In this document: piece after piece, positions 18,167 through 44,308 of the stretch
How positions within the stretch are numbered: the first letter of the stretch is position 1
Layout: each line of letters starts with the position of its first letter
DNA from: an uncultured Candidatus Saccharibacteria bacterium
Lineage (GTDB): Bacteria; Patescibacteriota; Minisyncoccia; Phycocordibacterales; UBA9973
Assembly: GCA_964532495.1 (NCBI GenBank)
Contig: CAZHJZ010000004.1
Location: forward strand, 4,123 to 68,122
Direction: 5' to 3'
Length of the DNA: 64,000 nt
Notes under the pieces: generated by a model
The model's input: only the letters and a program-made list of their open reading frames with translations
Database searches by the model: none
What the model was told of the DNA's origin: nothing
Translations under genes and position numbers: made by a program

Positions 18167-20473
18167 TTAGAGTTCAAACGTCTCACTGATCACGCCTTTA
18201 GCCGCATGGAAGGTATTGGAAGTATAGATCTTTGTATACGTACCGTCAGCATTCTTCGTCTCAACAGTCACATAGACATCTGATCGAGGAACGAGAACAT
18301 AGTAGTGCCCTTCTTCATCTGTAATGCGGTGAGCGATCTCATGATTGAGCGCTGCACTCCAGACTCGGACAATGCCATGCACCACAGGCAAGCCATTCTG
18401 TGTCACCTTTCCAGTTTTTATCGGACCGAGACCAAACGACTGCATAACAACTATGACAACATAGAGCGCAAGCATGAGGAAGTTCCACCACACTGGAGAA
18501 ATAAAGGTAATGACAATCGAAGCGATGAAACCGCCGATAAAGAAGAGGTTAAAGATTGCGTCCATAAGCGCATGGTTGCGAGTAAAATAATGGAGCAAGT
18601 TTCGCTTTCGCTTTTCATCTTGGTTCCAGTCTGTCGCCAATCGATCCATAGGAACGTTAAGAGTAATCACCTTTTCTTCCCCGCTGACAGAGAATGTTTC
18701 GCCGAAGTAAAGATTTTCATACACAGCATCGCGCATCTGTCCTGCTAATTTCTTAGATGGGAACAAATAATTGGTTTTGTTAACGACAATCTGGTATGTT
18801 CCAGTCTTCAAAAAGAATCCATAGCGTCCATCGATATCAGTAATCTGATTATAAACTTCTTTGCCAGTTGCTACGTCGATCGCAGATACATACGCAGGAT
18901 CAAGCGGTTCTTTCGTTTCTGAGTCGTATACGACGCCCCATGGACGCTTGCGGCGATAGAGAGCAATGGTGAGGAGCATGCTGCCAAAACGAGCGAGCAA
19001 GCCAGGAACTGCAGTCAAGAGACCAACTACACCGAGGGCTATCGGTATTGCATGAGGAATTTTTTCAAGCCCTGGAATTTGAAGTCCGCCTCCAAAGAAT
19101 GATGTTATCCCGCCAGTAAGACCGCCACCTGATGAATTCGAAGTAGTTCCAGTAGCGCTTCCTGATGCACTTGTATTGCCAGCCGTAGTATTTTGATCAA
19201 ACTGACATGGCAGTGGTGCTCCGATATTCAAAGCTCCAGGCTCAGTACATACTTGAGACAACGGAATACAATTCCCGTTTCCGTCGATCTGGTGATCTGC
19301 TGGAACGCTTGCTTGAACCCCGGCAATGTTCGGGCACATATCCATCGAAGGCAGCACGCAGTTTCCATTACTATCTGTCTGATATCCAACAGGAACAACA
19401 ATCTGGATTCCTGGTAAGTTGGTACACATGTCACCCTGAGGGATTACACAATCTCCATTATTATCCACTTGATAGCCGCTTGGAACTGAGGACTGCGTTC
19501 CGGCAATGTTCGGACACATGTCTTGACTCGACGTAACACAATTGCCATTTGAATTAACATGGTAACCTTGCGGAACAGTTGACTGAATGCCGCTTAGGTT
19601 CGGACACATATCGCTCGGAGGAATGACGCAGTTTCCTAAGCCATCCACTGCATATCCGCTCGGAATAGTAGCTTGGACACCAACAATATTTGGACAATAA
19701 TCTTGCGCTGGTAGAACACAATTCCCTATTGAATCTACATGGTACCCATTTGGAACGGTTGCTTGTATTCCTGAAAGGTTAGGACAAAGATCTTGGTCTA
19801 TTGGGTAACAATTGCTGTCATTGGTTCCGTAATAACCAGCTGGAACAGATATTTGCAAATCTGGAACATTCTTACAGACATCAATGTCTGGGCGGCCGTC
19901 CACAGTGCCAGGACCGCTCGTTGGTGTCGAAGTAGTGCTTGTACATCCATGCCATGTCGTATTGAGTCCTGTAAATCCGGCCTGCGCGGAAGCTAGCTGA
20001 ATATAGCCATAGTTCTGAGACCAAACCTGTCCTGTAATATCTCCGGTGGAAAGGTTGATATGTGGCGCAATAGTAGCTTGAGAAGGAGCAAAATTAATCC
20101 AGCCAGTATTTTGTCCCCACGCGTATCCGCTCAATACTCCCGAACAATTGTTCTTTACTCCGCCAGTCGGTCCAGCACTTGCAGGATTAAGGTTGATCCA
20201 GCCCACTGTTTCTCCCCAGATTGTACCCGTCACTGCTGTATCGGTAACAGAAACCGCGACACCGTTTGTTGGCATCCAATTGATCAAATCTTTTACTCCG
20301 CTAGAGTCAAGATCAATATCATAGAACTGAGAATATTTCTGCGCGGGGTTGATCGTACCAGTGGCCGCTTTTGTTGTACTTGGCAAAACGATCATGCTCA
20401 GAATGAGCATGGGCAAGAATATGTTTTTAGTAAGCTTAAAAAGATTTGCTGTGAGGCGAGCAATTTGTTTCAT
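18167..20473 (-). CDS. large cell-surface protein: signal peptide, GW-like repeats, 7x30-aa Cys-containing tandem repeats, TM segments, two CarboxypepD_reg-like C-terminal domains
   Basis: The repeat unit is CPN[IL].G[IV]Q.[ST]VP.GY.VD..GNCV.P..DM, seven copies. The N-terminus has a signal peptide (LPMLILSMIVLPSTTKA). Confidence 0.55.
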   Translation of the reverse strand: MKQIARLTANLFKLTKNIFLPMLILSMIVLPSTTKAATGTINPAQKYSQFYDIDLDSSGVKDLINWMPTNGVAVSVTDTAVTGTIWGETVGWINLNPASAGPTGGVKNNCSGVLSGYAWGQNTGWINFAPSQATIAPHINLSTGDITGQVWSQNYGYIQLASAQAGFTGLNTTWHGCTSTTSTPTSGPGTVDGRPDIDVCKNVPDLQISVPAGYYGTNDSNCYPIDQDLCPNLSGIQATVPNGYHVDSIGNCVLPAQDYCPNIVGVQATIPSGYAVDGLGNCVIPPSDMCPNLSGIQSTVPQGYHVNSNGNCVTSSQDMCPNIAGTQSSVPSGYQVDNNGDCVIPQGDMCTNLPGIQIVVPVGYQTDSNGNCVLPSMDMCPNIAGVQASVPADHQIDGNGNCIPLSQVCTEPGALNIGAPLPCQFDQNTTAGNTSASGSATGTTSNSSGGGLTGGITSFFGGGLQIPGLEKIPHAIPIALGVVGLLTAVPGLLARFGSMLLTIALYRRKRPWGVVYDSETKEPLDPAYVSAIDVATGKEVYNQITDIDGRYGFFLKTGTYQIVVNKTNYLFPSKKLAGQMRDAVYENLYFGETFSVSGEEKVITLNVPMDRLATDWNQDEKRKRNLLHYFTRNHALMDAIFNLFFIGGFIASIVITFISPVWWNFLMLALYVVIVVMQSFGLGPIKTGKVTQNGLPVVHGIVRVWSAALNHEIAHRITDEEGHYYVLVPRSDVYVTVETKNADGTYTKIYTSNTFHAAKGVISETFEL
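19247..19876 (-). repeat. 7 tandem 90-bp coding repeats inside surface protein gene
   Basis: Derived from the 30-aa protein repeats spanning aa 200-409. Confidence 0.55.
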
Positions 20474-20540
20474 GTACTAATGAGTATACCAAAACCGAAC
20501 TGCAAACTAAAGGTTTAGTGTGGAATACTTTATATTCGCA

Positions 20541-20572
20541 GCAAAAAAGCCGGGAAATCCCGGCTTTTTTGC
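20541..20572 (-). terminator. rho-independent terminator of clpB
   Basis: agccggg-aaat-cccggct, flanked by an A-run and a T-run. Confidence 0.6.
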
Positions 20573-20574
20573 TT

Positions 20575-27757: not shown

Positions 27758-27829
27758 TGACCTAGTCGCCAAGTGGTAAGGCAAAGGTCTGCAAAACCTT
27801 TATACGGCGGTTCGATTCCGCCCTAGGTC
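27758..27829 (+). tRNA. tRNA-Cys(GCA)
   Basis: Acceptor GACCTAG/CTAGGTC, anticodon stem-loop AAGGT-CTGCAAA-ACCTT and T-arm GGCGG-TTCGATT-CCGCC. Confidence 0.85.
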
Positions 27830-27891
27830 TCAACGTTTTGTTTTACAAAATGTACACTGATGATTACATGGTAGACATTGATTACAGAATA

Positions 27892-27920
27892 TTGTTCCTT
27901 TGTCTACAAATTAGTATAAT
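27892..27920 (+). promoter_or_regulatory. putative promoter for HNH gene
   Basis: TTGTTC, a 17-nt spacer, then TATAAT (27915-27920), immediately upstream of the GTG start. Confidence 0.35.
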
Positions 27921-27926
27921 CAGCAG

Positions 27927-28415
27927 GTGAAAAAATGGAATGATGCCGACTTGGCTAAGTCAGTTAAAAATTCAAAAAGTATTAGGCAGGTTTTAGCGAA
28001 ACTATCTCTTGTGGAGGCTGGTGGAAACTACAGTCAAATCAAGCAAAGAATAATCGATCTTGGTTTAAATATTGACCATTTTCATGGCAAGGGATGGCGG
28101 ACAGGCTTACATATTCCCACAACAAAACCTAAACCATTATCGATGCTTTTAGTAGAAAACTCGAGTTACCAAAGCCATAAATTAAAAATTAGATTGTTCG
28201 CAGAAAATATTAAGAAACAATCTTGTGAATTATGCGGGTGGGCAAAGAAATCACTTGATGGTAGAATTCCAGTTGAGCTCGATCATGTAAATGGAGACCA
28301 TAGAGACAATAGGATTGGCAACTTACGAATCCTTTGTCCCAATTGCCATAGTTTGCAACCAACACATCGAGGTAAAAATATAGGAAAGAAAAGCGGAAAC
28401 GGGTCAGTGGCGTAA
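27927..28415 (+). CDS. HNH endonuclease
   Basis: C-terminal CELCGW...LDHVNGDHRDNRIGNLRILCPNCHS HNH/Zn motif. The GTG start is uncertain. The last 15 nt overlap tRNA-Leu(TAA). Confidence 0.7.
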   Translation: MKKWNDADLAKSVKNSKSIRQVLAKLSLVEAGGNYSQIKQRIIDLGLNIDHFHGKGWRTGLHIPTTKPKPLSMLLVENSSYQSHKLKIRLFAENIKKQSCELCGWAKKSLDGRIPVELDHVNGDHRDNRIGNLRILCPNCHSLQPTHRGKNIGKKSGNGSVA

Positions 28416-28484
28416 TTGGTAGCCGCAGCAGACTTAAAATTTGCCGGTCGCAAGACCATGCGGGTTCGATTCCCGCCTGACCCA
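28401..28484 (+). tRNA. tRNA-Leu(TAA), type II
   Basis: Acceptor GGGTCAG/CTGACCC, anticodon stem-loop GCAGA-CTTAAAA-TTTGC, a long variable arm, and T-arm GCGGG-TTCGATT-CCCGC. Confidence 0.85.
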
Positions 28485-28501
28485 CACAACAAAATAATAA
28501 A

Positions 28502-28583
28502 GCCGGGGTGGCGAAATTGGTAGACGCACTTGCCTTAGGAGCAAGCGAGGCAACTCATGGAGGTTCAAGTCCTCTCCCCGGCA
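28502..28583 (+). tRNA. tRNA-Leu(TAG), type II
   Basis: Acceptor GCCGGGG/CCCCGGC, anticodon stem-loop CTTGC-CTTAGGA-GCAAG, and a long variable arm. Confidence 0.85.
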
Positions 28584-28591
28584 CAACGATA

Positions 28592-29974: not shown

Positions 29975-30421
29975 ATGTCAGCACCAGCAGCAGCGGCAGA
30001 TCCGCACGCAAAAAAAGAACATCAAGACCCTAACCCAAAAACTACAATACTTAGACCATTAATGATATTGGTATCTATAGGTTTGTTGATATGGGCAGTT
30101 ACTGGAGGTTCTTCTAGTAACACCACCGGCACTATCAGTACTAATGGCAATACAACAATTATTGTTAAAGATTTATTACGGTATACGGAAACTGCAACAG
30201 TGACTATATCGCAAAGTACTACATTCAATTATACAGGTACAGATCACTTCTATACTTGCAGCAACGGCCGTGCACGTGTCACTACCGAAAAAAACACAAC
30301 CGGAATACTAAACGGTTGCGAATTTGAAGATAGAGATGTTAGCAGCCTTGACGACACCAGAATCTGGCGCATAGAGCCACTTTCAGGAACAGTAACCATT
30401 ACCTTAACTAAAAAAAACTAG
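29975..30421 (+). CDS. hypothetical secreted/membrane-anchored protein
   Basis: One N-terminal TM helix (LMILVSIGLLIWAV) and a Thr/Asn-rich linker. Confidence 0.35.
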   Translation: MSAPAAAADPHAKKEHQDPNPKTTILRPLMILVSIGLLIWAVTGGSSSNTTGTISTNGNTTIIVKDLLRYTETATVTISQSTTFNYTGTDHFYTCSNGRARVTTEKNTTGILNGCEFEDRDVSSLDDTRIWRIEPLSGTVTITLTKKN

Positions 30422-30425
30422 TGCG

Positions 30426-31457
30426 ATGAGCCACCAAGAACACAATCCCGACAAAATTGAAAACAAGGTTAGCGAATTTTTTAGCGGACTAAACGAATAC
30501 GTTCTTTCCGCCCTAAACATACTTGTTTCATTACTTTACTTCAACAATGTGTTAGCTTTGGCTGTACACTTCCTTCTTAACGCGGGCATTGCATATTTTT
30601 TTGCAACTTGGTTTGCCTCGTTATTGCATATTCCGCTTATGGAATCAATACCTGGACGACTGATACTTGTTGTACTTCAAATCGGCACGATATACCGCTC
30701 GTACGAAACCTGCATTACGGTGCCTACATACCATGGATATTTACTCCGAGTATTCGGAATAAATACCCACCTTACATTAAGAAGTGGTACTTGGCCCATG
30801 TTCCTCCACCCGCTATTCAGTATTGAGGCGCATGAGGTAGTAGATCAGCAATACAAGGCTGGCACGGTACCTCCAACAGTTATATCTGATAAGTCTAACT
30901 ACACATTCATAGTAGAGGGATTGATCCCATACCATGTAACAGAAGAAGACTCATCAGTGTTCACTAAGTCGGATGAAAAGGACATATTAAAGATGATTAA
31001 CCTGCGTGCAGTAAATGCCGCTATAAGCATCTTTAATCGAAACGAATACATCACCACCACCCCCGAAGAAAGCGAGATTCACAATATGGCTGAATTCAAC
31101 GAGTTCGTTTACTACGAAATCGGAACTGAAGCATTAAAGGAACGTGGAGTAACGGTGGATACGCCGATACTGACCTATGTGCTAACCGAAGCTACGAAGA
31201 ATGATTTCTCTCAAAAAACCAAAGCCCTTAACACGGTACTGGCAAATAAGAGCGTTGTTCTTGGACAAGCAAATGCACTAGTAGTGTACAAGCAACTTCT
31301 ACAAGATGCCGGTATGAAAATTTCCGACAGCGAAGCTGAACTCGCAGTTCAAAAAGCAATCAATGGCGTAAACATTTACGACTTTGGCGGCAAGGGCGGC
31401 GACGGAGGGGCAATCAAGCTACTCAACATAACGGCTGAAGGCTCATCTAAAAAATAG
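30426..31457 (+). CDS. hypothetical membrane protein
   Basis: Two or three N-terminal TM helices and a 250-aa domain of unknown function. Confidence 0.35.
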   Translation: MSHQEHNPDKIENKVSEFFSGLNEYVLSALNILVSLLYFNNVLALAVHFLLNAGIAYFFATWFASLLHIPLMESIPGRLILVVLQIGTIYRSYETCITVPTYHGYLLRVFGINTHLTLRSGTWPMFLHPLFSIEAHEVVDQQYKAGTVPPTVISDKSNYTFIVEGLIPYHVTEEDSSVFTKSDEKDILKMINLRAVNAAISIFNRNEYITTTPEESEIHNMAEFNEFVYYEIGTEALKERGVTVDTPILTYVLTEATKNDFSQKTKALNTVLANKSVVLGQANALVVYKQLLQDAGMKISDSEAELAVQKAINGVNIYDFGGKGGDGGAIKLLNITAEGSSKK

Positions 31458-31568
31458 CCAACGGCACTAGAAGATACACGAAGAAATAAACAGAAATAAA
31501 CACCAATGCACCAGCCTCAAAAGCTGGTGTATTTTTTTATCTCCAATGTAAATAATGAAAACAAAAAA

Positions 31569-31594
31569 CCACCCTCTCTCAGGGTGGTTTTTTG
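31569..31594. terminator. bidirectional rho-independent terminator
   Basis: ccaccct-ctctc-agggtgg with a T-run on the 3' side and an A-run on the 5' side. Flanked by convergent genes. Confidence 0.6.
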
Positions 31595-31599
31595 TATAT

Positions 31600-31926
31600 C
31601 TAGTGTGGAAACGTGATCGTTGTACCTGGCGGGCCTTGTATGCCGAAGGTGTTAACGATGAGGCGCATGATACCGAATACTGAGACCATGATCACCAATC
31701 CTATGAGACCCCAGAGAAGGTGCTGCTTGCCGCTGGCAATTGATTTCTCTTCCCCGCTGCCTTGGTTCATAAGAAACTCTACTGCTCCCCAGATAAACAC
31801 GAGGAGGGCGAGAGACATCATGAACACGATGATCGGATCAATGATCTGAGTATTGAGGCGATAGATAAGCGTATCTATGCTTATCGCGTACGCACTATGA
31901 ATGCCGGTAAACCACCACGTAAACAT
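31600..31926 (-). CDS. small membrane protein, TrbC/VirB2-like two-helix module (paralog 1)
   Basis: IVFMMSLALLVFIWGAVEFLMNQGSGEEKSIASGKQHLLWGLIGLVIMVSVFGIMRLIVNTF. Confidence 0.4.
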   Translation of the reverse strand: MFTWWFTGIHSAYAISIDTLIYRLNTQIIDPIIVFMMSLALLVFIWGAVEFLMNQGSGEEKSIASGKQHLLWGLIGLVIMVSVFGIMRLIVNTFGIQGPPGTTITFPH

Positions 31927-31932
31927 AGTATT

Positions 31933-32313
31933 TTACTGACAACCAGGAGTGGTAACATCGTTGTCGATGACACAAGGAATCTGGTTCTGGTTAAGCTGTC
32001 CACCGCCGATACCGAGAGTTGACTGGAGGAATCCAACAAGACCCCAGATCGAAACGATAACGAAGAGACCAATAATACCGTAGAGGATGACCATCTTTGC
32101 CTTTCCACGTTCTTCTTCGTTTGACTTAGTAACAAAACTAACGACACCATATGAAACATACAACACGCCGAGGATGATCAAGATCGGCATCAAGTATCCG
32201 AGTACTTTCTGCACGATGTTCAACAACGCGAACAGCTGAGTTGCATTTTGAGCAAATGCGACAGCCGGTGTGAACGCAAGAGCGACTAGTCCTATCTTCT
32301 TCAAATTCTTCAT
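31933..32313 (-). CDS. small secreted membrane protein, TrbC/VirB2-like module (paralog 2)
   Basis: Signal peptide, then ILIILGVLYVSYGVVSFVTKSNEEERGKAKMVILYGIIGLFVIVSIWGLVGFL. Confidence 0.4.
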   Translation of the reverse strand: MKNLKKIGLVALAFTPAVAFAQNATQLFALLNIVQKVLGYLMPILIILGVLYVSYGVVSFVTKSNEEERGKAKMVILYGIIGLFVIVSIWGLVGFLQSTLGIGGGQLNQNQIPCVIDNDVTTPGCQ

Positions 32314-32404
32314 AATTGTGTATGTAAACTACTAATAATTACTAACCTAATAACATGCATATAGTATATCATACCCTGCCCCGTAAAAGGCAAGCGCTGC
32401 CTGT

Positions 32405-33388
32405 TTAAAATCCAAAGAGTGTTCGCGTGAATCCAACGAGACCCCAGACTGAAACAATGACAAACATGATAAGCACTCCCCACAACATAACTTGTTTGGA
32501 CTTCTTGCGCTCTTCCACTGAATCTGATGAGAGCACGTATTGAACGACTCCCCAGATGAAGTAGACCATGGCAAAGCTAAGTGCAATTGAAACGAGGAAG
32601 CGGTTGATAATGCAGGAAGCGGCGATGAATATATCGGCGAATTTTTTGATACTTACCGAACAGCCTGTCTTGTCGATATTTTGATTGGCTGTTTTGCCGG
32701 CATTATATAGATCGGCGTTGAGATCGGTATATGATTTATTTGGATCATAAATATCAAAACCGATCTTACTATTTGCATTCTGAGCAGCAGTAGAGGCCTT
32801 TGTATTGCCAGCCTGTGCCTGCGAACTGATCCATTGGTTGTAAATAGAAGGATTTGGAAGTGAGTTGTTCAAATACAATCCATTATAGTTTGCCGCACCG
32901 GCATCGTATGATCCGGAACTGTATGCGTTGCTATTGCTCTCTGATGTTCCATTATAAATACCTGGTGCTTGGTTTGCCGCGTCAAAATTCACATTGAAGC
33001 TGTCGATACCTCCTTGGTTTGTGGCTGCATCGCTGCTCGCCTGCGTGCCGTTGAAAACTGTAGAGTTCTGATTTGAGGCGCTTGTATTATTGCTTGTGTT
33101 AGCGGCACTGCCCTGGTTTACTGATGCGTCGCTATTGGCTTGAGTGCCATCGTGTATGCTTGTATTGTCAGCAGCACCTTGGTTCTGAGCACTTGTATTC
33201 GTATCTGATGTACCAGTATAGATATCGGAGTTCTGGTTAGTTGCATTGTTATTTACTTGAGTATTATCATTTGCTCCCTGAGTCTGCGAACTGCCGTTTG
33301 GATCATAGTATTGAGCAAAAGCTCCGCTTGGTACAACCAAGGCGACCAATATCAGTGCTGCTATTATTTTGTGGCTGATGTGGTTCAT
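32405..33388 (-). CDS. secreted N/T/Q/S-rich low-complexity protein with C-terminal TrbC/VirB2-like module (paralog 3)
   Basis: Signal peptide, a ~200-aa Asn/Thr/Gln-rich region, then FLVSIALSFAMVYFIWGVVQYVLSSDSVEERKKSKQVMLWGVLIMFVIVSVWGLVGF. Confidence 0.4.
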   Translation of the reverse strand: MNHISHKIIAALILVALVVPSGAFAQYYDPNGSSQTQGANDNTQVNNNATNQNSDIYTGTSDTNTSAQNQGAADNTSIHDGTQANSDASVNQGSAANTSNNTSASNQNSTVFNGTQASSDAATNQGGIDSFNVNFDAANQAPGIYNGTSESNSNAYSSGSYDAGAANYNGLYLNNSLPNPSIYNQWISSQAQAGNTKASTAAQNANSKIGFDIYDPNKSYTDLNADLYNAGKTANQNIDKTGCSVSIKKFADIFIAASCIINRFLVSIALSFAMVYFIWGVVQYVLSSDSVEERKKSKQVMLWGVLIMFVIVSVWGLVGFTRTLFGF

Positions 33389-33390
33389 AG

Positions 33391-34059
33391 TTATGCCATG
33401 AGGGCTTCAATAGTTGCCTTAATAACAGTGGCGATCATCCATGCGCCCAAGAGAATACCTGCACCGATCAATGTATATAAAAATCGCGTCTTTGCCTTTT
33501 CCAGCTTCTCGCTGTTTCCTCGCGCAAGAACAAACATGAGACCGGAATAAATAATGAATGCGGCAACGATTGGAATAGCGATCTTGAGAATAAGACCGAG
33601 AACTGAAGCAATGAAAGATCCGAAGTCTGAAACATTGATAGGATTTTGAATCTTGCCAACGCCGTTCATTGCGGCCAAACTATTTCCATTCCCATTTCCA
33701 CCAGGAGCTGGAGCCACTCCACCGGGAGCAGGAGCAATGCCTCCTGGCGCTGGAGCTGCGTTAAAATTATTCACCTGCATCTGAGAAGCTGCTGACGGTG
33801 TGGGATTTGTATTGAGCGAAGTACTATGACTATTGGTAGATGTCTGAGATCCGGCAGGAGCTTGCGTGCCATTCAACGGAGCAGCAGGACCTGCGCCGGG
33901 AGCAGTTGTTACAGGAGTAGCTGTGTTGTTGGTCGGCTGTGCCGTATGGACTGTCGTAGTATTGACTGCGGGAAATCCGTTCTGAGCAAAAACAGTAATA
34001 CCAACAGCAGAAACTGCGACAAATGCGATACTGATAATTAAATAGTGAATTTTTTTCAT
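33391..34059 (-). CDS. secreted Pro/Gly/Ala-rich protein with C-terminal TrbC/VirB2-like module (paralog 4)
   Basis: Signal peptide, APAPGG repeats, then IAIPIVAAFIIYSGLMFVLARGNSEKLEKAKTRFLYTLIGAGILLGAWMIATVI. Confidence 0.4.
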   Translation of the reverse strand: MKKIHYLIISIAFVAVSAVGITVFAQNGFPAVNTTTVHTAQPTNNTATPVTTAPGAGPAAPLNGTQAPAGSQTSTNSHSTSLNTNPTPSAASQMQVNNFNAAPAPGGIAPAPGGVAPAPGGNGNGNSLAAMNGVGKIQNPINVSDFGSFIASVLGLILKIAIPIVAAFIIYSGLMFVLARGNSEKLEKAKTRFLYTLIGAGILLGAWMIATVIKATIEALMA

Positions 34060-34074
34060 AGGATAATGGTTAAC

Positions 34075-35289
34075 TTACAAGAAACTACTATATTCGCCGG
34101 TGACGCCAAACGCTGCTAATATTGTTTTAACTACCAATACTGCGATAAGAATAATGATTACTCCAATTGCTACGTTTATAAAAATGCCTTTTGCCTTTCC
34201 TCGCGCTTCCTCGCTTGCACCATTAGTAAGGAAGAGAAATCCTGCATATGCAAACATGCCAGCACCAATAGGAATGGTCATATAAATAATCCAGGTCATT
34301 CCTCTATTGATGAGAACAACAATCTCAGGCCACCCGCAACGAGATTGACTTGAACGCCCATCGCAAGGAACGAGTCCGCCTGAAAGATCTGGTGCTTTGT
34401 CAAAAAGGGCTTTTATTCCTCCTGCATTTTTTGGAGCAACAGTAACTACGGGAGCACCTCCCTGGGATCCACTGCTCGAAGAAGAACCGAAGTTCCCGAA
34501 AGCGTAGAGATTTAGCTCGGTATCGGTCAAATCATACCGTATGGTTGCAAGGTCAATAATAGATCCAGTTGTATCAACCACTAGCCCAGAGCTATTGGTA
34601 GGTACGGTAAATGAAAGTGTCTGTGGTGCACTAGCATCATATTGTCGTGTGCCGAAGTTTTGAATTTCTTCTCCATAGAGCGAGTTTGCACTACTGGTGT
34701 AGCTAAATACAAAATTCACATCGTCGTCATGTGTAGGATTGCCACTGATTGTAAACGTTACTGTCATCCCATCTGAACTTATCGCCTTAGAAACTGTCAA
34801 TCCATTCACCACCATGCCGGAAGGACCGCCTGCAATACCAGCGGGGGTAGTGAAACTGCCAGTATAGTAAGCAAGCCCATTCGTATCTTCGATAGAGTAG
34901 CCATATTGTGTTGCGGGCAAAATACCGACACTGTTGTACGGAACATCAAACTCCATTCGAGTCTGGGTGTTTGGAATGGTATTGTCTGCACGAATAGCCA
35001 AGGTGCCAAGTTGATGTCTCTCTGTTGGATCTGACACTGGCCACCAAAATCCTTGGAATGTAATCTGGTCAGGAGATGATCCAATTGCATAAAACTTGTA
35101 GATGAAATCTGTATTTGCTTGAGCTGGTGTTCCTCCTGGTCCGTCTGGAGTAACAATAACCAAGTTCCCTGTTTGAGCATGCGAGCTGCTAACCAGTCCG
35201 AACATAGCAACAAAAACAATCGCAAGAATTGTTGCAACAATCAAACGCTGTTTCTTTGAAAAAATAGTAGTGAATATGTGCGCCTTCAT
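34075..35289 (-). CDS. secreted protein with large N-terminal beta-rich domain, CxxxxxxxC motif and C-terminal TrbC/VirB2-like module (paralog 5)
   Basis: CDGRSSQSRCGW, then IIYMTIPIGAGMFAYAGFLFLTNGASEEARGKAKGIFINVAIGVIIILIAVLVV. Confidence 0.4.
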   Translation of the reverse strand: MKAHIFTTIFSKKQRLIVATILAIVFVAMFGLVSSSHAQTGNLVIVTPDGPGGTPAQANTDFIYKFYAIGSSPDQITFQGFWWPVSDPTERHQLGTLAIRADNTIPNTQTRMEFDVPYNSVGILPATQYGYSIEDTNGLAYYTGSFTTPAGIAGGPSGMVVNGLTVSKAISSDGMTVTFTISGNPTHDDDVNFVFSYTSSANSLYGEEIQNFGTRQYDASAPQTLSFTVPTNSSGLVVDTTGSIIDLATIRYDLTDTELNLYAFGNFGSSSSSGSQGGAPVVTVAPKNAGGIKALFDKAPDLSGGLVPCDGRSSQSRCGWPEIVVLINRGMTWIIYMTIPIGAGMFAYAGFLFLTNGASEEARGKAKGIFINVAIGVIIILIAVLVVKTILAAFGVTGEYSSFL

Positions 35290-35329: not shown

Positions 35330-36670
35330 TTAATAACCGAATATGACCGAAAATTTACTTTGTGCATCACTTACCGCCTGTGTGGCATTCGTAGCACCGC
35401 GGACCACATTATCCACTAGAGAATTGAATATTGGATCAGTCAGATCCGCACCTGGATCATACCAACCGCGAGAAATAATAGCCGAGGAATAGAGCACTGG
35501 TCCAAACAGTATTTGCGGCACTTGAGCAAGAAGATCACGTCTAGCTGGTGCAACTGGCGATACAGGTATGAGAGCGCCAATAAGTTTTGCTGAAAATTCC
35601 ACGCCGGTTAAATCAGAAGCAATATAGAGCGCTGCGTCGCGATTCTTGCTTGCCTTTACTATTGCCAATGCCTGGATTTTACCAAAAGTCATTTGCACTC
35701 CGGTTGTGCCAGACTGCGGAACTTTTGAAATATCGAAATTCAAGTTTGGGTTTTGAGCTACTATCATTGGAAGCTCGCTTGCGTATCCGATGTAGAATGC
35801 AAGTTGACCGCTTATGAATTGCGTACGTGCATTCGTAAATGAACGATTCCAAGTATAAGTATCTTTAGTAGGATCAACGAATTGCGTAAAGAATTTAACC
35901 ACTGCCTCTGCTGGCGGAGCAACCTGCGAGCTTGCTGTCTGCTGAGTAGCGCTGATGCCAATCACTGGCAAAAACTTATCTGCTTGTCGGGTAACAATGC
36001 CATTTCCAGCTTGGAATAAAAGCATTGAAAGCACATCGCGAGCATGATTAAGGTTGCTATAGATACCGAATGGAACGGCGCTTTGAACGATATTCGAATT
36101 TCCGTCACGCTTGGTAAGAAGCGGGGTCTTTTCAGTCAGTTCATTCCATGTTTTTGGCGGAGTAGTAAATCCACCTGCTTCAAGGAGATCACGGTTGTAG
36201 TACATGATCAAAGGATCGATGGTCAGCGGCAAGCCAACAATACCCTGTGTAAGCATGAACATTTCCCCTTCTCCTGCAAATGTAGATCTGAATGTTGCTT
36301 CTGAGACAGTAGTATATGGAATAGCATAGAGCTTAGATTGATTCTTCAGAATCTGATCCTGACTCAATACTACAAGATCAGGTCCTGTGCCAGAAGCAAT
36401 TGCTTCTGCGAGCTTGCTATTGAGATCGCCTGCCTGAATCGGAACATAGGTAATCGAATATCCTGCTTTTTGATGAGCAGCATTATATTCGCTCACCAAT
36501 TTATTCATTACATCTTGCGGATAAGTACCCCACAGTGTTACCTGCCCTCCAACTGCCTGTTGGCTCTGTGCACCGCCTCCTCCGATTACTCCAGTAAATA
36601 CGAGGAGTGCGAGAATGATAAAAACAACAAAGAAAATGATGACGCCAATTTGAAACGGTGATGCTTTCAT
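35330..36670 (-). CDS. extracellular solute-binding protein (ABC-type, family 1-like), orphan
   Basis: Signal anchor followed by a periplasmic-binding fold (GDLNSKLAEAIASGTGPDLVVLSQDQI, NRDLLEAGG). Confidence 0.5.
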   Translation of the reverse strand: MKASPFQIGVIIFFVVFIILALLVFTGVIGGGGAQSQQAVGGQVTLWGTYPQDVMNKLVSEYNAAHQKAGYSITYVPIQAGDLNSKLAEAIASGTGPDLVVLSQDQILKNQSKLYAIPYTTVSEATFRSTFAGEGEMFMLTQGIVGLPLTIDPLIMYYNRDLLEAGGFTTPPKTWNELTEKTPLLTKRDGNSNIVQSAVPFGIYSNLNHARDVLSMLLFQAGNGIVTRQADKFLPVIGISATQQTASSQVAPPAEAVVKFFTQFVDPTKDTYTWNRSFTNARTQFISGQLAFYIGYASELPMIVAQNPNLNFDISKVPQSGTTGVQMTFGKIQALAIVKASKNRDAALYIASDLTGVEFSAKLIGALIPVSPVAPARRDLLAQVPQILFGPVLYSSAIISRGWYDPGADLTDPIFNSLVDNVVRGATNATQAVSDAQSKFSVIFGY

Positions 36671-36673
36671 ATG

Positions 36674-37201
36674 CTAACTCTTTTTGAAAATAATCCCATA
36701 ATGGTGCGCTCCTGCTTCAAATGTTTTTTCTACGGCAAAACCGAATTGCGCAAATAATTCTTTTGCTTTCGCTTCAGTAATCACATGATCGGGATGAGGC
36801 CCCATGCCCCCGAATGCATCGCTCCAGTCGACAAAATACGCAAGACCGCCCGGCTTCAATATGCGAGCAAGCTCGGTAAGAAACGCCGGGCGGTCTTCTG
36901 TTATAAACAAGACATTTGAAACGATAGCGCCGTCCATAGACCTGTCGGCAAGCTTGGTGCCCCCAACTTTTTCAATATTTGACCAGACGTATTGGATGTT
37001 AGTTATGTGTTCTTGCGCAGCGTCATTTTTGATGCGAGTCAAAAGATCCTTTTGTACTTCACAAGCATAAACCATGCCGTTTGGAGAAACGGCTTTTGCT
37101 GCAGGAAAAGTATACGCGCCACTTCCCGCACCGAGGTCTGCAATATGCATACCAGAAGTAAGTCCGAACTGTTGCACGTTTGATGAAGGGTCTGCGAACA
37201 T
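36674..37201 (-). CDS. class I SAM-dependent methyltransferase
   Basis: Motif I IADLGAGSGAYTF and motif post-I YACEVQ. Confidence 0.65.
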   Translation of the reverse strand: MFADPSSNVQQFGLTSGMHIADLGAGSGAYTFPAAKAVSPNGMVYACEVQKDLLTRIKNDAAQEHITNIQYVWSNIEKVGGTKLADRSMDGAIVSNVLFITEDRPAFLTELARILKPGGLAYFVDWSDAFGGMGPHPDHVITEAKAKELFAQFGFAVEKTFEAGAHHYGIIFKKS

Positions 37202-37247
37202 GTATATATAGTATAGCAGGAAAAAATAAAAGATGTCGAATTAATGC

Positions 37248-43975: not shown

Positions 43976-44308
43976 TTACAAGAGGTAATTATCTTTTGGA
44001 CCGAGCCAGACGAATTGGGCTGTAGTAACTGGCTCATTGGTGGTAAGGAGGGTAAATGTATCGTTTTTAAAAACATCGTAGTTGAATGCTTTCCATTCTG
44101 GATTTTCAGATGCAACGTTTTGCTTTTCAGTAAGTTCACCGAAAGCAAATGCGTGCGGCACCCTGCTCTGAGTTTCTCTGATTGTTTCCTGGAAATCAGG
44201 TATAACAAAAAAGGAAACATCTTTGAGGTAAACTTCATCATGTTCGGTGTAGGTGTTTCCAACATACACGCGCCACTTTCCCTTTGATTTATGTACAAGT
44301 ACTTTCAT
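43976..44308 (-). CDS. hypothetical protein
   Basis: 110-aa ORF with no recognisable motif. Confidence 0.3.
   Translation of the reverse strand: MKVLVHKSKGKWRVYVGNTYTEHDEVYLKDVSFFVIPDFQETIRETQSRVPHAFAFGELTEKQNVASENPEWKAFNYDVFKNDTFTLLTTNEPVTTAQFVWLGPKDNYLL

Follow-up and report, generated by a model that had tools for sequence, protein, structure and literature searches.

An array of five distinct PF18895 pilin-like proteins on a Patescibacteria chromosome

Five genes with a common C-terminal module

The 64,000-nucleotide stretch of DNA analysed here (GenBank contig CAZHJZ010000004.1, positions 4,123 to 68,122; hereafter the window) comes from the chromosome of a Paceibacteria-type Patescibacterium, and it holds an array of five genes encoding pilin-like proteins, p1 to p5. 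According to the open reading frame (ORF) list, the five co-oriented minus-strand ORFs fill positions 31600-35289 and are transcribed in the order p5 to p1, with intergenic gaps that in this order measure 15, 2, 91 and 6 nt. The gene counted as first in an earlier annotation, p1, is accordingly transcribed last. All five proteins end in a module consisting of a hydrophobic helix, a 12-17-residue loop rich in Glu and Lys, and a second hydrophobic helix. A first-pass annotation, made from the sequence letters, had described five consecutive minus-strand proteins sharing such a helix-charged loop-helix C-terminus, and this description holds: every C-terminus matches the Pfam family PF18895, named for type IV secretion system (T4SS) pilins, with E-values from 8.5e-11 to 2.3e-5, and the loop strings quoted in the annotation are all found in the translations. 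The genes, the parts of p5 and the signals within and behind the array are listed here in transcription order.

34075..35289, minus strand: p5, class A pilin-like protein, 404 aa; signal peptide, two beta-sandwiches, disordered G/S-rich linker, LVPC-x8-C, module
34849..35157, minus strand: predicted first beta-sandwich (FN3/Ig-like) of p5, residues ~45-147; seven strands, block pLDDT ~66-88 in the AF2 model
34492..34815, minus strand: predicted second beta-sandwich (FN3/Ig-like) of p5, residues ~159-266; seven strands in the AF2 model, Foldseek matches
34078..34338, minus strand: pilin module of p5, residues 318-404; helix 320-355, loop LTNGASEEARGKAK, helix 360-393
33391..34059, minus strand: p4, class B pilin-like protein, 222 aa; signal peptide, 126-residue A/N/G/P/T-rich low-complexity spacer, module
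32405..33388, minus strand: p3, class C pilin-like protein, 327 aa; signal peptide, 235-residue N/S/A/T-rich spacer, Cys243/Cys259 pair, module
32314..32404, minus strand: 91-nt spacer before the class D gene; extended -10 promoter-like motif TGATATACT at ~32363-32371, with a short hairpin and then TTTT ahead of the motif
31933..32313, minus strand: p2, class D short pilin, 126 aa; signal peptide ending AFA|Q, module, C-terminal tail with Cys114/Cys125
31600..31926, minus strand: p1, class E short pilin, 108 aa; 14-residue leader ending AYA, module
31561..31595, minus strand: strong intrinsic terminator closing the array, 3' of p1; 15-bp stem, 5-nt loop, T-run

Two strong hydrophobic segments are picked out in each protein by Kyte-Doolittle windows, and p2 to p5 have an N-terminal signal-like segment in addition. 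This is a classical signal peptide with an A-x-A end directly before Gln, and the short leader of p1 lacks a basic n-region; among class E orthologues leaders are likewise short or absent. Pairwise identity between the five modules is 14-37%, with a mean of 24%. The annotation had also given G(L/V)VGF as a general ending of the second helix, which does not generalise, GLVGF being present in p2 and p3 only.

As the annotation had stated, the N-terminal parts differ strongly. There is almost nothing beyond the leader in p1 and p2; the spacers of p3 and p4 have the compositions listed above, the former containing 12 N-x-S/T sequons; and the N-terminal part of p5 comprises 290 residues, mostly beta-strand. 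In the AF2 model of p5 (mean pLDDT 68) the two beta-sandwiches are followed by a disordered linker (residues 271-301) and then by the hairpin (320-393). The best Foldseek matches of the two-domain model, at E ~1e-6, are the tandem FnIII domains of the Vibrio cholerae matrix protein RbmA, the C-terminal barrels of transglutaminases, and FNIII pairs, and by this modelling the p5 payload is a tandem FN3-like pair. A cysteine motif does stand directly before the p5 module, as annotated; its spacing is C309-x8-C318 rather than Cx7C, and V307, P308, C309 and C318 are invariant among homologues. The p2 protein is modelled as a plain helical hairpin with helices at 24-62 and 66-100, and its 34 homologues keep a C-terminal PC...GC.

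Family membership and relation to VirB2/TrbC

With the curated PF18895 gathering cut-off at 26.6 bits, p2 (residues 26-96, 42.2 bits), p4 (149-213, 29.5 bits) and p1 (27-89, 27.3 bits) lie above it, and p3 (264-320, 26.4 bits) and p5 (323-390, 24.8 bits) fall slightly short, by 0.2 and 1.8 bits. The latter two are tied into the family by a hidden Markov model (HMM) of their own family (E 1e-24 and 4e-35, respectively) and by orthologues that bear PF18895 marks, and precomputed Pfam marks on an identical public contig agree with the assignment. Since every protein is matched, the resemblance goes far beyond what chance would give for two transmembrane helices. The family membership and architecture of the five proteins are near certain. 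The family is very large: a profile search with p2 orthologues returned 22,859 cluster representatives at E <= 1e-3 among 1.84 billion.

A second family also comes close. NF045849, a "pilin-like conjugal transfer protein" of Mycoplasma integrative and conjugative elements (ICEs) with a cut-off of 40 bits, is matched by p2 (38.2 bits), p3 (23.7), p1 (22.3) and p4 (21.3), all below the cut-off, and not by p5; the p2 match covers model positions 9-77 of 80 with E 8.5e-10. These near-threshold matches hint, at the level of sequence profiles, that monoderm systems of the MPF-FATA type have VirB2-like proteins.

Is the family homologous to the VirB2/TrbC pilins of diderm T4SSs? Our reference alignment for the latter consisted of six authentic proteins from MPF-T plasmids. 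A broad profile of the window family aligned with it weakly in hhalign (10.7% probability, P 0.003), colinearly over 64 columns that span the whole mature pilin. The family-wide search also yielded Patescibacteria proteins that match both PF18895 and the TrbC family PF04956, and an alignment of ten of these bridging proteins was compared with both sides, giving 92.5% probability against VirB2/TrbC (E 4.8e-7, whole mature pilin) and 99.6% against the window family (E 7.5e-25). These alignments are shallow, and transmembrane composition may bias the values. Homology to true VirB2/TrbC is thus supported transitively, through intermediate sequences only.

Other pilin types were considered and rejected. 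None of the five proteins has, within its first 45 residues, the G|(F/M)xxxE motif of type IV pilins (type IV pili, Tad pili and type II secretion pseudopilins), and their module is C-terminal with two helices. The LPx[TSA]G motif of sortase-assembled pilins is missing from all five.

Predicted topology of the module

The loop of each module has 2-4 Lys or Arg residues and the C-terminal tails have none; in alignments the loop follows the consensus E-x-R-x-K-A-K. All cysteines are paired, with one pair each in p2, p3 and p5, and every pair falls in a stretch predicted to be outside the cell: C114/C125 in the C-terminal tail of p2, and C243/C259 of p3 and C309/C318 of p5 just before the first helix. 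Homologues of p5 keep its pair without exception, and orthologues of p2 conserve theirs. In some relatives an SLT lytic-transglycosylase or a Cys-rich domain is placed C-terminal to the hairpin, where it must be extracytoplasmic, since an SLT domain must reach the cell wall. Together with the loop charges and the cysteine pairs, this leads us to infer that both termini face outward and that the loop is cytoplasmic, as in VirB2, so that N-terminal payloads would decorate the exterior of a filament. In known VirB2-type pili both termini are outward, and the loop faces the lumen and binds phospholipid.

A hairpin with a polar loop could also be the unit of a membrane ring or pore, an oligomer resembling a holin or an ATPase c-ring that forms a channel and not a filament. 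Natural fusions of two to six hairpins, described below, recall duplicated c-subunits, and there are weak, noise-level matches to Hol_Tox and holin-type models. These and other non-pilin Pfam matches are far below their cut-offs, however, and the cleavable signal peptides, the outside-facing cysteine pairs and the VirB2 homology speak against such a channel, as does the lack of any evident conserved membrane-embedded carboxylate in the conserved alignment columns, which were not directly tested for one. Holin and ATPase c-subunit readings were rejected on grounds of motif and architecture, and we consider a ring or pore highly improbable.

Five ancient classes in a fixed order

Two further genes of the same strand lie directly upstream of the array.

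35330..36670, minus strand: membrane-anchored carbohydrate-type solute-binding protein (SBP); PF13416, PF01547, weak MalE/CUT1 matches; 40 nt upstream of p5
36674..37201, minus strand: class I S-adenosylmethionine (SAM)-dependent methyltransferase; 3 nt upstream of the SBP gene, within the conserved co-oriented block

In 20 of the 21 related loci for which downstream DNA is available, the SBP gene is followed directly by an array of three to seven pilin genes. The larger block, S1, metallo-beta-lactamase (MBL), gyrA, in some cases an ATP-binding cassette (ABC) protein, methyltransferase, SBP, array and, further on, rbfA and infB, is kept among genomes whose GyrA proteins are 56-93% identical, with one further example. 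Judged by this gene order, the array is a core, vertically inherited element of the lineage and not part of a mobile element.

Not only the array but also its internal order is kept. When the proteins of relatives are compared with those of the window, the first gene has its best match in p5, the second in p4 (by a wide score margin), the penultimate in p2 and the last in p1. Over 14 arrays, modules at the same position in different genomes are 35-43% identical, against 17-31% for modules at different positions within a genome (Mann-Whitney p = 6.5e-36). Class C is the only class whose copy number varies between genomes, and its nearest neighbour among the classes is class D, at 42% identity. 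A large payload is present in some class A proteins (413-663 aa) and lacking in others (109-176 aa), and the domains found in other family members include fn3/Pur_ac_phosph_N, DUF5018 and SLT. The comparison of 14 genomes argues for five ancient classes in a fixed order that are not interchangeable variants.

A fixed order of ancient classes argues against recent duplication for the sake of variation and for a fixed multi-subunit set. The alternative, that the genes are alternative major pilins that arose by tandem duplication and serve to vary the surface or to match host strains, has been suggested for Patescibacteria arrays in PMC12102498, by analogy with the VirB2 paralogues of Bartonella and Anaplasma. 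It would fit the low identity within the array, the variable copy number of class C and the resemblance of class C to class D. Classes A, B, D and E, however, predate the split of the genomes with 56-93% identical GyrA and have kept their order, the genes form one or two compact transcription units in which nothing points to switching elements, and the classes differ systematically in architecture, class E having no classical signal peptide and class A having LVPC...C. We regard interchangeable variants as improbable here.

Many of the top matches to the family are single chains, in which one signal peptide precedes two to six hairpin modules joined by short linkers (for example P0160, 336 aa; P0169, 231 aa; P0206, 552 aa). 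Such chains are natural concatemers of the gene array and bear on how modules might pack side by side.

An internal promoter-like spacer

The 91-nt spacer before p2 is the sole long gap in the array, and the 13 complete arrays of relatives all have a counterpart of 75-124 nt. Of 14 such spacers, 13 contain TATAAT or TATACT and 9 an extended -10 box (TGnTATAAT-like), against 0.3 on average and at most 3 in 1,000 shuffles. A conserved promoter-like spacer at this position suggests that p2 and p1 probably have a promoter of their own, which fits a role as bulk subunits. Across the region as a whole, a promoter consensus scan gave sites no more frequent than shuffle expectation, and information came solely from comparing the spacer among relatives. 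The best sigma-70-like match in the region, a consensus match only, lies upstream of the methyltransferase gene.

37210..37239, minus strand: best sigma-70-like promoter match in the region; TCGACA-18-TATACT with TG

In the class D spacers of six relatives (loci L003, L004, L005, L006, L009 and L018), the -10 box is followed after about 10-45 nt by the short motif AGGTCG(T/C)T. This motif, which the spacer of the window lacks, may be part of a conserved 5' leader.

Comparison with known arrays and pilus systems

Pilin arrays have been described in Patescibacteria. According to PMC12102498, 3,035 Patescibacteria genomes were searched with PF18895, PF04956 and the CONJScan pilin profiles; VirB4 was present in 2,417 of the 3,035 assemblies and formed a clade nested within the monoderm MPF-FATA class. 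VirB2-like pilins were found in 1,948 VirB4-containing assemblies, near virB4 in 1,135 of them, and 441 arrays of 2-11 pilin genes were counted in 383 assemblies, with a mean within-array identity of 25%, most abundantly in Microgenomatia and Saccharimonadia. In Southlakia epibionticum ML1 a six-gene pilin array within the T4SS cluster is essential for epibiotic growth (PMC10633639), and the "Sec-secreted array" of Nanosynbacter lyticus TM7x is a further example (PMC12102498, PMC10633639 and PMC12857230). A 2025 review treats the Southlakia pilin series as the one exception to the absence of VirB2 from monoderm systems.

With five tandem genes and a mean module identity of 24%, the window array is a further instance of this described type: it belongs to the same Pfam family and phylum, its genes are tandem and co-oriented, their number lies within the 2-11 range, the identity is close to the 25% reported, and the architecture of signal peptide and two helices is the same. 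The PF18895 matches and this literature on VirB2-like arrays together bear out the TrbC/VirB2-type pilin-like reading proposed in the first-pass annotation. Unlike the arrays beside virB4, the window array stands in a housekeeping block that runs from gyrA through the methyltransferase and SBP genes and the array to rbfA and infB. The available text of the array literature (PMC12102498, PMC10633639, PMC12857230) contains no mention of positional orthology of five classes, of an internal promoter-like spacer, of an SBP partner or of an FN3 payload.

The likeness to VirB2/TrbC (PF04956, from diderm T4SSs, for example the Agrobacterium T-pilin) extends to the long leader cut before Gln, the two helices and the short basic loop, and the window module matches mature VirB2 in size and can be aligned with it over the full length. 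The differences are just as clear. Direct sequence similarity is below significance, the host of the window is monoderm, and there are five classes per genome, with N-terminal extensions of up to 290 residues, instead of one pilin plus VirB5. No virB3 or virB4 adjoins the array, and nothing suggests head-to-tail cyclisation. Mbov_0395 and MMCAP2_0565 of Mycoplasma ICEs (NF045849) are likewise small two-helix proteins of a monoderm MPF-FATA-type system, although they are encoded on a mobile element and the window array in the core chromosome. The Patescibacteria pilins may have come with an MPF-FATA-type system rather than from diderm systems, a point left open in PMC12102498. The logic of the window array is reminiscent of type IV pili and type II secretion pseudopili, in which ancient ordered paralogues share an assembly module and small abundant subunits accompany larger domain-bearing ones. 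The likeness is one of analogy only, since fold and machinery are unrelated and the window proteins have neither a class III G|FxxxE leader nor a single N-terminal helix.

Proposed function

What might five such proteins do together? The reading that we favour, and consider fairly probable, is that this is a PF18895 array of distant VirB2/TrbC relatives that supplies mixed major and minor pilins to a chromosomal T4SS encoded elsewhere; filament assembly, the division into major and minor subunits and the dependence on a T4SS are inferred parts of it. Each protein would be exported by Sec and cut by signal peptidase at a site of the A-x-A|Q type. The C-terminal module would then insert into the membrane as a helical hairpin, with the N-terminal part and the C-terminal tail outside and the Glu/Lys-rich loop in the cytoplasm, forming a membrane pool. 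A chromosomal, monoderm-type (MPF-FATA-like) VirB4-type machine, which in Paceibacteria is usually encoded near dnaA, would extract the hairpins and polymerise them into a filament or conduit reaching the host cell. The short, payload-free p2 and p1 (classes D and E) would be the likely bulk subunits of the filament body, and p5, p4 and p3 the likely low-abundance subunits (minor, tip or decorating) that contact the host surface through their outward N-termini.

Several observations weigh against this. Not one of VirB4, VirD4, VirB3 or a recognisable VirB6 was found in the 64-kb window, in which all ORFs of at least 500 aa and most of at least 250 aa were scanned; the annotation's remark that no VirB4 or VirD4 gene is nearby is thus true of the window as a whole. 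Neither were such genes present within 10 kb of the pilin genes of the relatives inspected. The profile evidence is also less direct than one would wish. The comparison with PF04956 proposed in the annotation was not significant, giving a match for p2 only (13.6 bits against a cut-off of 27.9, E 0.079); the p2-orthologue alignment reached 0.9% probability against the six VirB2/TrbC proteins in hhalign; PDB sequences searched with a p2-family profile gave no pilin match (best E 0.13); and transmembrane composition is able to inflate profile scores. A Foldseek search of the p2 hairpin against the PDB was uninformative, returning generic helical hairpins with a best E of 0.2, because so simple a fold cannot discriminate. 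Chains in which two to six hairpins are fused sit awkwardly with the extraction of subunits one by one. To our knowledge, no T4SS pilus has been seen in Patescibacteria to date. The 2025 review goes only as far as a "potential to elaborate conjugative pili".

With T4SS genes missing nearby, the case for a link to a T4SS depends on homology and on published work. The reported linkage of pilin genes to virB4 was not reproduced around the family members on the long contigs inspected here. The context of a virB operon, in which virB2 lies between virB1 and virB3, with virB4 also beside the gene, was not found either.

The lack of T4SS genes nearby favours the other function raised in the annotation, that of surface-display anchors, in which the hairpin serves as a membrane anchor only and outward payloads such as FN3 domains, glycosylatable stalks or SLT domains are presented with no filament and no T4SS. 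Members of the family do carry large and varied payloads on either side of the hairpin, single chains of two to six hairpins exist, and the array appears to be co-transcribed with a membrane-anchored SBP. The architecture of a conserved hairpin with a variable payload was therefore described correctly, and is seen in other family members; as a function, display has less explanatory power than the pilin reading, since conservation is strongest in the payload-free classes D and E. A simple anchor would need neither two helices nor a conserved E-x-R-x-KAK loop, display does not account for the transitive homology to VirB2, and in Saccharibacteria an array lies within the T4SS cluster and both are essential. 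We consider display anchors possible but unlikely.

A more specific version of the pilin reading would make methyltransferase-SBP-[A,B,C,D,E], a unit conserved across Paceibacteria, the genes of a fixed heteromeric filament. It would have five non-interchangeable VirB2-type subunits, two of them bulk subunits under a promoter of their own and three minor ones bearing adhesins or stalks, and a dedicated SBP. This is speculative, and we think it doubtful in this full form. If true, the filament would be an organelle of host contact or nutrient capture, possibly built at a distance from the virB4 cluster or without its involvement, and would follow a "minor pilin" logic never described for T4SS pili.

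A large part of bacterial diversity belongs to the Patescibacteria, whose cells live attached to those of a host, and in the one species tested genetically the T4SS and its pilin array are essential, in a role described as completely unknown. The locus adds nothing categorically new, but it sharpens the question of what the arrays do. New here are the positional orthology, the SBP linkage, the internal promoter-like spacer and the core-chromosome context, which give a testable structure to the question of array function, together with the apparent split between a promoter-driven pair of short subunits and a payload-bearing set. Predictions follow about the identity of the bulk and tip subunits and about an association of the SBP with the filament.

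Genomic neighbourhood and further pilin loci

On one side the array is bordered by the SBP, the methyltransferase, an ABC exporter and GyrA, and on the other by two membrane proteins with no family match and then VanW. The flanks at large are of a housekeeping character (gyrA, ABC exporter, SAM methyltransferase, SBP, VanW, tRNAs, rbfA, infB, clpB, topA, relA, parB, ddl, alr and others). Relatives of the SBP are found in metagenome-assembled genomes (MAGs) of Paceibacterota, Nomurabacteria and other Paceibacteria-type Patescibacteria, the closest being 67% identical. The SBP has an N-terminal membrane anchor but no adjacent gene for an ABC importer permease, the neighbouring ABC protein being of the exporter type, with fused transmembrane and nucleotide-binding domains. 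The two membrane proteins, of 148 and 343 aa, are encoded on the plus strand at 29975-30421 and 30426-31457 and converge on the array terminator; they have no Pfam or NCBIfam match, are conserved only in near-identical contigs (L001, L026), and were not counted as part of the system.

Relatives of the window have another conserved pilin site immediately behind clpB, with the gene order infB, aminotransferase, in some cases a protease, clpB and pilin. Examples are L033 (10001-11026), L035 (10001-11518), L037 (10001-10450) and L038 (10001-10402), and the equivalent position in the window is about 18167-20574. The pilin module at this site is sometimes fused to a C-terminal SLT lytic transglycosylase, resembling a fusion of VirB2 with VirB1. 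The window has at this site a secreted protein of 768 aa (18167-20473, minus strand), which was examined for a hidden pilin and contains no pilin module. It consists of about eight tandem repeats of about 27 residues, each with a Cys pair, CPN(L/I)xG(I/V)Q..VP.GY.VD..GNCV, followed by C-terminal membrane helices, and its sole match, to DUF2207_C, is weak.

A tRNA cluster (Cys, Leu-taa, Leu-tag) at 27759-28584 encloses an ORF for an HNH endonuclease (27927-28415). The true start of VanW is probably further downstream than the listed GTG (28508), because the latter overlaps tRNA-Leu (28502-28584). In an otherwise housekeeping context, a 110-aa ORF at 43976-44308 on the minus strand matches PF25735, a family resembling gp82 of Mycobacterium phage L5 (E 1.8e-9).

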